A DNA stretch of 4,917 nt from a virus (taxonomy: Duplodnaviria; Heunggongvirae; Uroviricota; Caudoviricetes), in IMG/VR virus record IMGVR_UViG_2671180814_000001. One strand, 5' to 3'. Below are positions 1,418-4,917 of this stretch, one piece after another (position 1 is the first letter of the stretch; each line of letters starts with the position of its first letter). Under the pieces are notes generated by a model. It was given only the letters and a program-made list of their open reading frames with translations. It made no database searches and was not told the origin of the DNA. The position numbers were made by a program, and so were the translations under genes.

Positions 1418-1463
1418 AAGGGATATCAGTTAAGTTATCCCGTGTAGGGTATAAGCCATTATC

Positions 1464-1490
1464 AAAGCCACTCTGTAGGAAGTGGCTTTT
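1464..1490 (+). terminator. Candidate intrinsic terminator hairpin (stem AGCCACT/AGTGGCT, 8-nt loop, TTTT tail; A-run on the other side, so possibly bidirectional)
   Basis: 7-bp perfect stem at 1466-1472 and 1481-1487, followed by TTTT at 1487-1490. Confidence 0.4.
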
Positions 1491-1501
1491 GTAATGGCAA
1501 T

Positions 1502-1525
1502 AAAAAGCCCCGCGAATGCGAGGCT
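1502..1525 (-). terminator. Rho-independent terminator for the minus-strand (late) transcript
   Basis: Minus-strand RNA AGCCUCGC-AUUC-GCGGGGCU followed by UUUUU: an 8-bp GC-rich stem with one G-U pair. A near-identical element follows the other Rz copy at 3478-3500. Confidence 0.5.
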
Positions 1526-1558
1526 AAATCCTGGTATTTGTAATGACTGGCTCTTATC

Positions 1559-1702
1559 TCAACGCAGCCCCTTACCGCGCGCAAAATGCTCAATATCAAG
1601 CATCAGCAATGAGATGTTTAATCTGGATTCACTCCAGAAGTGAGCACCACCCTGTCTACAGAGCCAGATGTGAAGGATGATGAGTAAAATTATCGCTATC
1701 AT
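1559..1702 (-). CDS. Possible small membrane protein (47 aa, [47 protein letters not shown]), translationally coupled to Rz
   Basis: ATG at 1700-1702 overlaps the Rz stop at 1699-1701 (ATGA). The N-terminal 14 residues are strongly hydrophobic. The ORF ends about 35 nt before the terminator at 1502-1525. It is below the ORF-track length cut-off and was found by manual translation. It is absent from the equivalent position after the second Rz copy. Confidence 0.25.
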
Positions 1703-2166
1703 CGAAGGCATTGCGTCCTGATGTATTCCTGAAGCGTTCTCAGTGCTGTTTGGTCGCGGATAATTCCGTCCCGGATACCGAGAACGTTTCGTCCAGCAAC
1801 TGGAGAGAGTTCGACGGTGGCATCATTGCCCATGCCGGAGGCGCTGGAGGTTTCGGCTGAGGATGGCACAGGGCATTTTCCTTTGACGAGCACCCGACCA
1901 CCATTATCAAGCTTGCGCCGAAGAGCATCATTTTCAGCTTTCGCATCAGCTAACTCCTTCGTGTATTTAGCATCGAGTGCATCAGCATCACGCTGGCGCT
2001 GCTGCATGTCAGTAATGGTTGCGTTCGCCAGCTTCAGTTCTCTTGCGTTTTTGTCGCGCTGCTCTTTGTAGGTAATGGCGTTATCACGGTAATGATTAAC
2101 AGCCCATGACAGGCGGACGATGATGCAGATAACCAGAGCGGAGATAATCGCGGTGACTCTGCTCAT
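1699..2166 (-). CDS. Rz: Rz i-spanin (inner-membrane spanin subunit), lambda type
   Basis: The N-terminus [34 protein letters not shown] (TM helix) followed by a coiled-coil-like region matches lambda/DLP12 Rz as recalled. ATG at 2164-2166 overlaps the upstream endolysin stop (ATGA). A C-terminal Cys is present. Confidence 0.85.
1740..1946 (-). CDS. Rz1: Rz1 o-spanin lipoprotein, embedded in the +1 frame of Rz, lambda type
   Basis: [21 protein letters not shown] has a lipobox (VVGC) and is followed by the proline-rich [16 protein letters not shown]. It resembles lambda Rz1 (MLKLKMML...VVGC...PPPPPAW) and lies entirely inside Rz. Confidence 0.8.
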
Positions 2167-2281
2167 TGCTGCCCCCACAAACAGACTTCACGCTCAATCT
2201 CACGACGGGTCATCAGCCCTTTCCATTGCTTACCGCCAGCATATGTCCAGCGACGTAGCTGGTCACATGCGCCTTTGATAT
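2163..2281 (-). CDS. R: 3' end (last 38 codons) of a second endolysin gene, interrupted upstream by the N gap
   Basis: Translates to [38 protein letters not shown], almost identical to the C-terminus of the complete endolysin at 3987-4484. The reading frame runs directly into the N-run at 2282. Confidence 0.8.
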
Positions 2282-3477: not shown

Positions 3478-3500
3478 AAAAAGCCCCGCATCGCGAGGCT
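3478..3500 (-). terminator. Rho-independent terminator directly downstream of Rz (same module as 1502-1525)
   Basis: Minus-strand RNA AGCCUCGC-GAU-GCGGGGCU followed by UUUUU. It lies about 30 nt after the Rz stop and is near-identical in sequence to the element at 1502-1525. Confidence 0.5.
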
Positions 3501-3531: not shown

Positions 3532-3990
3532 TTATTTCAGGCATTGCGTCCTGATGTATTCCTGCAGGTAGTTAACCTGCGCGGTTATCTTGTCGATTCC
3601 ACTTCGGAGACGGTAATAATTGAGTTCAGCATCTGCTGTAAGTCCTGGGCTTTCTCCATCGCCCATGCCGCTGGCTCCGGTCGTTGACTTTGCACAGGTG
3701 GCGGCGACTTGCAGGCGCTTACGCCCAGCAGAAACATCAGCACGGAGACTTTCGATAGTCGCGTTAGCATCAGCAAGCTCCTTTATGTATCTTGCGTCGA
3801 GTTCTGCTACATCACGTTGACGCTTCCGCATGTCAGCGATGGTGGCGTTCGCCTTCTCCAGTTCACTGGCCTTGTTATCGCGCTGCTCTTTGTAGGCGAT
3901 TGCGTTATCACGGTAATGATTAACAGCCAATGACAGGCAGACGATGATGCAGATAACCAGAGCGGAGATAATCGCGGTTACTCTGCTCAT
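3532..3990 (-). CDS. Rz: Rz i-spanin (second variant; C-terminal half diverged from the copy at 1699-2166)
   Basis: [35 protein letters not shown]-terminal TM helix followed by a charged coiled-coil-like region. GGGGGA SD before ATG 3988-3990. The ATG overlaps the endolysin stop (ATGA). Rz1 is embedded. Confidence 0.85.
3585..3770 (-). CDS. Rz1: Rz1 o-spanin lipoprotein, embedded in the +1 frame of Rz (second variant)
   Basis: From ATG 3768-3770: [20 protein letters not shown] (signal peptide with lipobox Cys) followed by the proline-rich [16 protein letters not shown]. Entirely inside Rz. Confidence 0.75.
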
Positions 3991-4484
3991 TGTTTCCCCC
4001 ACAAACAGACTTCACGCTCAATCTCACGGCGAGTCATCAGTCCTTTCCATTGATTACCGCCAGCGTATGTCCAGCGCCGTAGCTGATCACATGCGCCTTT
4101 AATATCACCCTGGTTTATTTTGCGAAGAAGCGTCGATGTTCTGAAATTGCCAGCGCCCACGTTGTAAACGAACGAGTAAAGAGCGCCGCGCGTTGTTTCC
4201 GGTATATCGACTTTGATGTACGGGTTAATTTGTCTGGCGACAGTGGCAAGGTCTTTATTCAGGAGAGCTTTGCACTCTGCTTCGGTATACGTTTTACCGG
4301 GAATGATGTCTTTTCCTGTATGCCCGTAACATACAGTCCATACACCAACTATGTCTTTGTAAGGATTATGTCTCACACCTTCCAGACCATCGTTACCACC
4401 TGGGCCAGTGATTAACACAGATGCTATAGCAATAGCCCCGCCACCAATAGCAGCAGCAACAGCTTTTCGTAATGATGGAGGCAT
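3987..4484 (-). CDS. R: SAR endolysin (phage-21 R / DLP12 RrrD-type lysozyme with an N-terminal signal-anchor-release domain)
   Basis: 165 aa. [28 protein letters not shown] is a Gly/Ala-rich weakly hydrophobic SAR segment. It is followed by a T4-lysozyme-like catalytic region (LEGV...YKD...VWT). Near-identical to the phage 21 R protein as recalled. The start overlaps the holin stop (TAATG). Confidence 0.9.
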
Positions 4485-4699
4485 TATCCACCTCTCGCAG
4501 CCTTGCGCTTATCTTCTTTAATCTTGAAATAAAGGTTTGTCAGGTACGTCAGCAGGCCAAATACCAGGCTACCCAGCACTCCAATTGCCGCCCACTGTGA
4601 GGGCGTGACTTTATCTAGCAGCTGTAAAAACCAGTACCCGGCACTACCTGCTGAGGTGCCATAGGCGACACCCGTTGTTAACTTATCCATGGATTTCAT
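4484..4699 (-). CDS. S: Pinholin, S21 family (class II holin, 71 aa) with a dual-start motif
   Basis: [71 protein letters not shown]: two TM segments and a charged C-terminus. Met1-Lys-Ser-Met4 is the antiholin/holin dual start. A strong SD (GAGGTGGGG) precedes the ATG. Near-identical to phage 21 S / EssD as recalled. Confidence 0.9.
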
Positions 4700-4811: not shown

Positions 4812-4844
4812 AAAAAATGGAAAAACCCGCTCGACGGCGGGTTT
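4812..4844 (-). terminator. Candidate tR' (terminator of the short late-promoter transcript, the target of Q antitermination)
   Basis: Minus-strand RNA AAACCCGC-CGUCGA-GCGGGUUU followed by UUCCAUUUUUU: a perfect 8-bp stem with a U-rich tail, about 110 nt upstream of the holin start. Confidence 0.55.
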
Positions 4845-4874
4845 AAGCTGTGTGACGAAGTAACCACTCTTAAC

Positions 4875-4903
4875 AGCATAACCAATTTTGGTGATGCTGC
4901 CAA
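4875..4903 (-). promoter_or_regulatory. Candidate sigma70 late promoter (pR'-like)
   Basis: On the minus strand: TTGGCA (-35, 4898-4903), a 17-nt spacer, and TATGCT (-10, 4875-4880). The predicted start is about 55 nt upstream of the terminator T-run. The Q gene would lie beyond the right edge of the window. Confidence 0.35.
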
Positions 4904-4917
4904 CTTACTGATTTAGT

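Follow-up and report, generated by a model that had tools for sequence, protein, structure and literature searches.

A stretch of 4,917 nucleotides (nt) of viral DNA (Caudoviricetes; IMG/VR record IMGVR_UViG_2671180814_000001), referred to below as the window, carries on its minus strand a small open reading frame (ORF) directly behind the spanin gene Rz. Comparison with related loci favors, by our estimate with somewhat better than even probability, a translated gene for a small hydrophobic peptide that is embedded in a conserved structured RNA and coupled to the last spanin gene, with a terminator or a hairpin after it. Most of the ORF, together with 10 nt past its stop codon, is predicted to be a conserved RNA secondary structure, and past the hydrophobic N-terminus, the RNA appears to determine most of the peptide sequence. 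We regard the ORF as probably a genuine small gene that closes the lysis cassette. The new findings are the conserved RNA fold and the fixed place of this module at the end of lysis cassettes that are otherwise unrelated. The ORF and its ribosome-binding motif are located as follows.

1559–1711, minus strand: small ORF of 50 codons (MPSMIAII...GKGLR), including the stop codon at 1559–1561; WP_001139678.1; PHROG 11822.
1716–1719, minus strand: AGGA, Shine-Dalgarno-like, 4 nt before the ATG at 1711 and within the Rz coding sequence.

An earlier note on this DNA had described a hydrophobic ORF of 47 amino acids translationally coupled to the stop of Rz. The overlap on which it relied, an ATG at 1702–1700 that shares the sequence ATGA with the Rz stop codon TGA at 1701–1699, is present on the minus strand, and the frame from this ATG to the TGA at 1561–1559 encodes precisely the 47 residues that were quoted. 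A second in-frame ATG at 1711–1709 gives a 50-residue product, which is the form used in public annotation. The strong terminator that had been placed about 35 nt past the ORF begins its hairpin 33 nt after the stop. The segment of about 150 nt said to be lacking after the other Rz copy is indeed lacking there; local alignment places the homologous hairpin at about 3482–3500, roughly 30 nt past that copy's stop (a global alignment of these ends with MAFFT was not informative). Because the Rz copy at 3532–4002 shares only the last 29 nt and the hairpin, the ORF segment is truly extra at 1559–1702. The length of the ORF is by itself no evidence, since the window contains 57 ORFs of at least 30 amino acids, mostly spurious; its significance rests on comparative data. 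A programmed frameshift that would extend Rz was considered and rejected: no slippery heptamer was seen by eye in the last 33 nt of Rz, and no systematic search was made.

A Predicted Conserved RNA Fold Spans Most of the ORF

The fold was examined in a gapless alignment of 40 sequences and 152 columns, in which the window coordinate equals 1697 minus the column number. The RNAalifold consensus contains the following predicted elements.

1549–1680, minus strand: conserved RNA fold, alignment columns 17–148, covering the greater part of the ORF plus 10 nt downstream of the stop.
1675–1680 with 1644–1649, minus strand: P0, columns 17–22 with 48–53, 90% paired.
1660–1665 with 1549–1554, minus strand: P1, columns 32–37 with 143–148 (GGCUCU with AGAGCC).
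1633–1638 with 1622–1627, minus strand: H2 hairpin, columns 59–64 with 70–75.
1610–1615 with 1556–1561, minus strand: P3, which encloses H4 and H5, columns 82–87 with 136–141 (AUCUCA with UGAGAU), stop codon included.
1598–1607 with 1581–1591, minus strand: H4, from RNAalifold.
1574–1579 with 1563–1568, minus strand: H5, from RNAalifold.

In the diverged set, inverted repeats in the variable middle of the ORF covary, appearing as GGGCTG...CAGCCC, TGGCTG...CAGCCA, or GGACTGGC...GCCAGTCC. When P0 is left out, 92.9% of the pair cells are paired, as compared to 31–40% when the partners are slid by one to three columns. Ten pairs changed on both sides, and the observed pairing was reached in 0 of 500 shuffles. 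Inclusion of P0 gives 92.6% paired versus 35–43% in the slid controls and 12 pairs in which both sides changed. For the Klebsiella-type sequences by themselves, the figures are 94.8% and 34–43%, and again none of 500 shuffles reaches the observed value. Compensatory pairs are found at columns 59/75 (GC, UA, CG, and AU) and 57/77 (GC and UA), and within P0 at columns 18/52 (UA and CG) and 19/51 (CG and AU). Changes on both sides occur in H2 and P0, and P3, H4, and H5 are mostly invariant or wobble-compatible; nearly all one-sided changes are wobble-compatible. The many G-U pairs are compatible with the late-transcript (sense) strand only.

P0 crosses P1, so the two would form either a pseudoknot or alternative folds. 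The minimum-free-energy fold of the window's own sequence recovers P1, H2, P3, H4, and H5; in single Klebsiella-type sequences, P0 with an inner hairpin is preferred over P1. The fold explains nearly all of the conserved residues in the C-terminal two-thirds of the peptide, as well as the invariant GATAAGAGCC after the stop codon. It also accounts for the tolerance of the polymorphisms A23D, E41K, and F43L, which are common in E. coli and by which pairs are kept or improved.

These data bear on the reading of the ORF as a plain gene for a small membrane protein, such as an accessory lysis or exclusion factor, whose helices are incidental to a short GC-rich sequence. A hydrophobic N-terminus, a basic C-terminus, tight coupling to the spanin gene, and membership in a catalogued family (PHROG 11822) would all fit such a gene. 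It would not, however, explain why 93–95% of pair cells are kept, through compensatory and wobble-only changes, versus 31–43% in shifted controls, why amino acids are unconstrained where the RNA is unpaired or variable, or why noncoding bases past the stop are invariant. We consider a plain gene quite unlikely.

No Rfam family, IsrK included, matches the fold. The Rfam entry STnc560, which we take to be MgrR, scored 19.9 bits against a gathering threshold of 55, mainly on terminator hairpins, and was rejected as a chance match. The literature places STnc560 between ydeI and ydeE; yneM (STnc570) is the adjacent entry in the table concerned. Matches to mir-458, AbsR28, and other Rfam entries were also rejected as chance matches to hairpins only.

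Diverged Relatives Occupy the Same Place in Unrelated Lysis Cassettes

Distant blastn matches were found in Klebsiella phages and an E. coli phage-plasmid, at 75–83% identity over the 3′ half, each with an annotated ORF of 45 amino acids directly after Rz. Profile searching widened the family to Klebsiella, Raoultella, Citrobacter, and Kluyvera. Its 34 diverse members are 43–84% identical, align without any internal gap, and share the pattern M-x-x-L-F-I-L-L-S-I-W-L-C-R ... W ... I-S-x-L-x-L ... E-H-P-A-R-G-K-G-L-R. The small ORF is always the last gene of the lysis cassette, on the same strand, and is preceded by at least three unrelated spanin families. The genes found upstream are listed here.

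Window: Rz of PHROG 13.
Other loci: Rz/Rz1 of PHROG 312/11621.
Other loci: separate i- and o-spanins of PHROG 1026/1275.
Other loci: 58-amino-acid protein of PHROG 8494, after holin and endolysin.

The start codon in the relatives is ATG (GTG once) at a single alignment position, 0–8 nt from the upstream stop. The motif AGGTGA usually stands 2–4 nt before this start, in at least five unrelated upstream contexts. Breaks in homology between related loci fall at three places, 1734 (in the final 11 codons of Rz), 1537, and about 1495–1502; the ORF therefore moves as a module together with the Rz tail and the terminator.

The earlier note had left open that this was simply a chance ORF, that is, a frame in a nonfunctional spacer that mosaic recombination left behind. 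It is true that chance alone yields many ORFs this long in the window, that no such segment follows the other Rz copy, and that the ratio of nonsynonymous to synonymous change (dN/dS) is near neutral among close relatives. Against this stand conservation across genera, the gapless alignment, covarying helices, and the maintained frame and start. The element is a conserved mobile module that keeps its frame, start, and Shine-Dalgarno motif across diverged phages, and chance, the least credible of the explanations weighed here, is rejected.

At three loci (L216, 1018–1194; L205, 589–765; L208, 513–713), no recognizable spanin lies between the endolysin and the small ORF. The spanin-less Klebsiella-type cassettes have a holin of PHROG 785 and an endolysin of PHROG 315, with the apparently membrane-embedded 58-amino-acid protein of PHROG 8494 in the place of the spanin. 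A decayed module in Klebsiella phage ST147-VIM1phi7.2 (locus L196, 1395–1520) is not directly behind Rz. A 14-nt deletion between two CTGTCGA repeats has removed the 5′ strand of P1 and shifted the frame of this copy, which has an internal TGA. Its H2 pairing is retained with a new stem, AUGAC/GUCAU. Another relative has a +1 slip in a G run that changes only the last residues.

Codon-Level Signals Point to Translation

Peptide-pattern searches favor sequences with intact conserved ends, so relatives were resampled by DNA anchors placed at the 3′ end, at the 5′ core, and, in metagenomes, at three RNA-helix segments. The low dN/dS ratios (omega) of 0.10 and 0.18 obtained for the conserved ends from peptide-pattern loci were discounted as ascertainment bias. 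Among 34 unique DNA-anchored Klebsiella-type sequences, the frame is open in 33, and the other two sense frames are open in one and five. Related phages maintain the frame, the loss of which to insertions, deletions, or stops the earlier note would have taken as refutation. Of the 57 unique sequences in the metagenome set, no more than one or two lack an open frame. Derived stop codons occur in frame 0 in 4 of 117 sequences, versus 31 and 29 in the other frames, and frame 0 is open across a region with about two substitution events per site.

Substitutions were counted separately for paired and unpaired columns. Paired columns show 2.8, 3.2, and 2.9 events per column at codon positions 1, 2, and 3, with no periodicity. 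Unpaired columns show 4.1, 3.3, and 6.4 events, with position 2 below position 3 (p = 0.0017; p = 0.004 in the E. coli clade alone). The third-position excess in unpaired columns recurs in the DNA-anchored sets, with p = 0.0015 in the RNA-anchored metagenome set and 0.06 and 0.09 in the others. Thymine at the second codon position is invariant or nearly so at columns 5, 8, 11, 14, 17, 20, 23, and 29. At columns 5, 8, 11, and 14, which lie outside the helices, it is nearly fixed, and the adjacent first and third positions vary in about 40% of sequences. This near-invariant thymine in the first codons reads as a signature of selection for hydrophobic residues. The conserved start, Shine-Dalgarno motif, open frame, and codon pattern together indicate that the small ORF is likely translated.

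Several observations weigh against a translated peptide gene within a structured RNA. A first-pass selection set comprised 190 loci, taken from viral contigs and from genomes, with identities of 88% or more. These close relatives carry 16 synonymous and 35 nonsynonymous variants (dN/dS about 0.77, p = 0.24). The same method gives 0.09 for the holin, 0.17 for the endolysin, and 0.54 for Rz with its embedded Rz1, and an intergenic control gives 0.8–0.9 by the same count, from which the ORF is indistinguishable. Omega for the whole ORF is 0.72–0.87 across samples, which does not amount to overall purifying selection. It is about 1.2 in the middle 24 codons and about 0.4 (p = 0.04–0.12) in the hydrophobic core, codons 5–14, under unbiased ascertainment; in the last seven codons, a synonymous excess is confounded with unpaired or wobble positions of the RNA. 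In 31 of the 34 Klebsiella-type sequences, there is also an open antisense frame, in register with the ORF at third codon positions. P1, being invariant, lacks support from covariation, and in folds of single sequences it competes with P0. With 15–18 uncharged residues in the window product and 13 in the Klebsiella-type relatives, the hydrophobic stretch is short for spanning a membrane. Disrupted copies exist, among them W16*, a frameshift, an internal stop (TAG), two truncated remnants, and a decayed Klebsiella copy. The family is narrow, as discussed below, and a literature search found no paper naming the protein and no expression or proteomic data.

The variants among close relatives include A6E, W16R, W16*, L17P, loss of the stop codon, and a 1-nt insertion. 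The conclusion that these relatives first suggested, that the ORF is neutral and so probably noncoding, was revised after the diverged relatives and the RNA fold were taken into account. The dN/dS near 1 was misleading here because RNA structure, rather than protein, drives most of the conservation. The antisense frame meets a stop at 1641–1643 in the window itself. When synonymous codons of the sense frame are randomized, the antisense frame is open 69% of the time, and the converse figure is 31%. The antisense ORF was rejected as largely a byproduct of the composition of the sense protein; its start is not fixed, and antisense folding is incompatible with the G-U pairs.

The main rival is an RNA element only, which might serve in processing or stability, block 3′ exonucleases, or be a regulatory RNA derived from the 3′ end and ending at the terminator, with a reading frame that is incidental or is translated without consequence. 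All conserved residues in the C-terminal two-thirds of the peptide (W, I-S, L, A-R, and G-L-R) lie in helices, conservation runs 10 nt beyond the stop through GATAAGAGCC, and paired columns lack codon periodicity. The omega of about 1.2 in the middle of the ORF, the dN/dS near 1 among close relatives, and the terminator or hairpin directly after the ORF in many members are also consistent with this rival. It does not readily explain the period-3 thymine at second positions of unpaired 5′ codons or the third-position excess in unpaired columns, which was seen in three independently ascertained sets. The maintenance of ATG and AGGTGA in unrelated upstream contexts with variable spacing, and of an open frame 0 despite about two substitution events per site, also argues for translation, and no promoter-like site for a separate transcript was found. 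We therefore regard an RNA element without a functional peptide as possible but clearly less probable than a peptide gene within the conserved RNA.

A Catalogued but Uncharacterized Family

The description of the ORF as unannotated holds for the raw window and fails for public data, in which RefSeq, Sf6, and epsilon34 list a hypothetical protein and PHROG 11822 a family. The RefSeq form is WP_001139678.1, of 153 nt, with a 13-nt overlap with the "lysis protein" gene. The PHROG 11822 profile matches residues 1–50 of 50 (E = 1.8e-36) and is matched by all 34 diverse members. The window copy is an ordinary member of this catalogued but uncharacterized family. A 321-nt query matches DNA in 2,291 of 5,426 complete E. 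coli genomes (~40%); at least 80% of the query is covered in 1,663 of the 2,291, where the feature is a "hypothetical protein". Identical or near-identical DNA is present in 53–97 phage records, depending on the query, and the exact 50-amino-acid sequence occurs on at least 1,000 contigs. The ORF is annotated in phages Ayreon, epsilon34 (gp67, with a note to Sf6 gene 65), and mEp460; HK620 and CUS-3 contain the DNA, and the ORF is not called.

A profile search of 1.84 billion protein representatives returned just 28 clusters at 50% identity, all from the same small family, which is thus narrow; this counts against the peptide gene. The product has no match in Pfam or NCBIfam. The label "flagellar biogenesis protein FliO", given by a few sources, and a match to STEVOR were rejected as artifacts of the hydrophobic stretch. 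Automatic annotation at times fuses the ORF with Rz or Rz1 ("lysis protein, partial", 77–126 amino acids), also an artifact.

Properties of the Peptide

The earlier note had predicted a single transmembrane helix. The hydrophobic stretch is there, and its length makes a full span borderline, as a bilayer span takes roughly 17–20 hydrophobic residues. The Kyte-Doolittle mean over 19 residues is 2.07 for the window product and 0.8–1.45 for the relatives. The very hydrophobic N-terminus of 13–18 residues, the invariant Arg that follows it, and the basic C-terminus suggest that the product is probably membrane-associated. The further proposal of a small membrane protein coexpressed with the spanins stands in part. 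The ORF abuts unrelated spanin genes with a stop/start overlap or nearly so, and the second-position thymine and unpaired third-position variability agree with it; the dominant RNA constraint had been missed.

No holin or antiholin match was found in Pfam or NCBIfam, and PHROG 11822 is the sole PHROG match. The only Cys was considered as the mark of an o-spanin or lipoprotein; this was rejected, as the I-W-L before it does not fit the lipobox [LVI][ASTVI][GAS]C and Rz1 is a separate ORF.

A type I toxin-like module, in which a folded mRNA keeps translation of a small toxic hydrophobic peptide low, would be a special case of the peptide gene favored here. The size of the peptide, its hydrophobic N-terminus, and an extensively structured mRNA in which P0 and P1 may be alternatives suit this idea. 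A promoter scan, however, found neither an antitoxin-like promoter on the antisense strand within or beside the ORF, nor a promoter for an adjacent small RNA (sRNA), nor a promoter-like site for independent transcription of the ORF itself, and no toxin or antitoxin family matches in Rfam or Pfam. The ORF has no promoter of its own and is coupled to a late phage operon rather than forming a stand-alone locus. A toxin of this kind is very unlikely.

Proposed Function and Comparison with Known Systems

We propose a self-contained module of lambdoid and P22-like phages, situated at the very end of the lysis cassette and composed of two superimposed layers. In the first, an ORF of 45–50 codons would be translated from the late transcript right behind the last spanin gene. 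In the window, initiation would likely occur by reinitiation at the ATGA overlap or by a start at the ATG 9 nt upstream. In the second, the RNA from about codon 6 to 10 nt past the stop would fold into P0, H2, and P3 (with H4 and H5), with P1 as a possible long-range pairing, and this fold rather than the peptide would dictate most of the sequence. Because the stop codon lies inside P3, a translating ribosome would have to open the whole fold. The fold may limit or time translation of the peptide, contribute to stability or processing at the 3′ end of the lysis message, or have a role in trans, and the peptide may be an accessory membrane factor of the late or lysis stage.

A bolder version is a dual-function late RNA, in which a compact, nuclease-resistant RNA released from the 3′ end of the lysis transcript would act by itself as a regulator or decoy late in infection, and unfolding by ribosomes coming from the spanin gene would yield a short membrane peptide that tunes lysis, the two states being mutually exclusive. 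Such exclusivity is hinted at by the competition between the P0 and P1 pairings. We consider this version unlikely.

Sf6 gene 65, epsilon34 gp67, WP_001139678.1, and PHROG 11822 are the closest known counterparts, with the window product an exact member in the same position after Rz. No RNA structure is annotated for this family in the records examined, nor in Rfam. Type I toxin mRNAs encode a small hydrophobic peptide in an mRNA that is folded across the coding region. The small ORF resembles those of hok/sok, ldr, tisB, and ibs in having a peptide of at most 50 residues with a hydrophobic N-terminus and folding that spans the coding region. It differs in that no antisense RNA, promoter of its own, or sequence or Rfam match was found and in that it is coupled to a spanin gene in a late operon.

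Dual-function RNAs such as SgrS/SgrT, RNAIII/hld, and Gifsy-1 IsrK likewise combine a small ORF and conserved structure on one RNA. Unlike these, the module gives no sign of base-pairing in trans or of a separate transcript and has no Rfam match. The 3′-end Hfq-dependent sRNAs CpxQ, SroC, and SdhX resemble the window in having a structured operon 3′ end followed by a U-tailed intrinsic terminator, whereas many members of the present family have a hairpin without a U run instead of a terminator. The slot between spanins and packaging genes holds accessory genes such as bor of lambda and borD of the K-12 prophage DLP12. The small ORF shares this slot after Rz; bor, however, encodes a lipoprotein from the opposite strand and has its own promoter, whereas the small ORF is co-oriented, coupled to Rz, and without a lipobox (IWLC).

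Enterobacterial lambdoid and P22-like lysis cassettes, with holin, endolysin, and spanins, are among the best-studied gene sets. The module stands at the 3′ end of these cassettes in the well-known phages HK620, Sf6, epsilon34, CUS-3, and mEp460 and in ~40% of complete E. coli genomes. The module may represent a fifth component of the lysis cassette, a cis element for stability or processing of the late transcript, or an RNA-controlled toxin-like peptide. With a fold absent from Rfam and evidence suggestive of translation, it lends itself to inexpensive, well-defined experiments.

Terminator, Downstream Hairpin, and Repeats

The region past the ORF contains the following features.

1498–1525, minus strand: intrinsic-terminator-like hairpin from the terminator scan, stem 1525–1506, AGCCTCGC ATTC GCGGGGCT then TTTTATT.
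1537–1545 and 1488–1496: direct repeats CATTACAAA on either side of the terminator.
1457–1496, minus strand: downstream hairpin; the flanks CATTACA(A/G)..stem..(C/T)GATAATG are kept and the stem sequence is variable.

Some related loci lack the terminator, and homology breaks precisely at 1537 and at about 1495–1502. With breaks at the repeats and loci free of it, the terminator looks like an inserted cassette, and 1495–1502 is a putative hot spot for accessory gene insertion. In most relatives, the downstream hairpin follows the small ORF, in many of them directly, without an intervening terminator. A paralogous copy lies at about 2543–2578, after the 85-amino-acid ORF. By eye, the stem variants remain complementary. 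The downstream hairpin has no U run on the late strand, and the window copy resembles a weak terminator on the opposite strand.

Layout of the Window

The minus strand of the window reads as the late region of an E. coli lambdoid prophage, with the features below in order of transcription.

4484–4699, minus strand: holin (S), from the ORF list, a gene separate from the small ORF.
3987–4484, minus strand: endolysin (R), copy 1, from the ORF list.
3532–4002, minus strand: Rz with embedded Rz1, holin-side copy, with a terminator-like hairpin after it.
Between this Rz and the N run, minus strand: ORFs of 165 and 85 amino acids.
2282–2465: masked N run, which hides the junction of the duplication.
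2166–2281, minus strand: second endolysin (R) copy, 3′ end only, last 38 codons.
1699–2166, minus strand: Rz (i-spanin) before the small ORF; PHROG 13 "Rz-like spanin", E = 1.9e-74; RefSeq "lysis protein".
1740–1946, minus strand: Rz1 (o-spanin), nested in Rz, from the ORF list; PHROG 3198, E = 3.8e-26.
After the Rz at 1699–2166, minus strand: small ORF, terminator, then a spacer of ~600 nt.
After the spacer, minus strand: small terminase of the DUF1441 type, then the beginning of the large terminase.

Part of the lysis region occurs twice, with S-R-Rz/Rz1 at 4699–3532, two ORFs, and then the second R end and second Rz/Rz1 at 1699–2281. The two Rz copies are diverged alleles that have the N-terminal part and the last 29 nt in common. 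A search for tRNA and tmRNA genes found none. Upstream of the holin gene, 4817–4908 on the minus strand gave a weak match to the Rfam Trp leader (28.8 bits, below the gathering score of 41; E = 0.007) that overlaps a terminator-like hairpin at 4823–4844. This hairpin is most likely a terminator proximal to the late promoter (tR′-like) rather than a trp attenuator.

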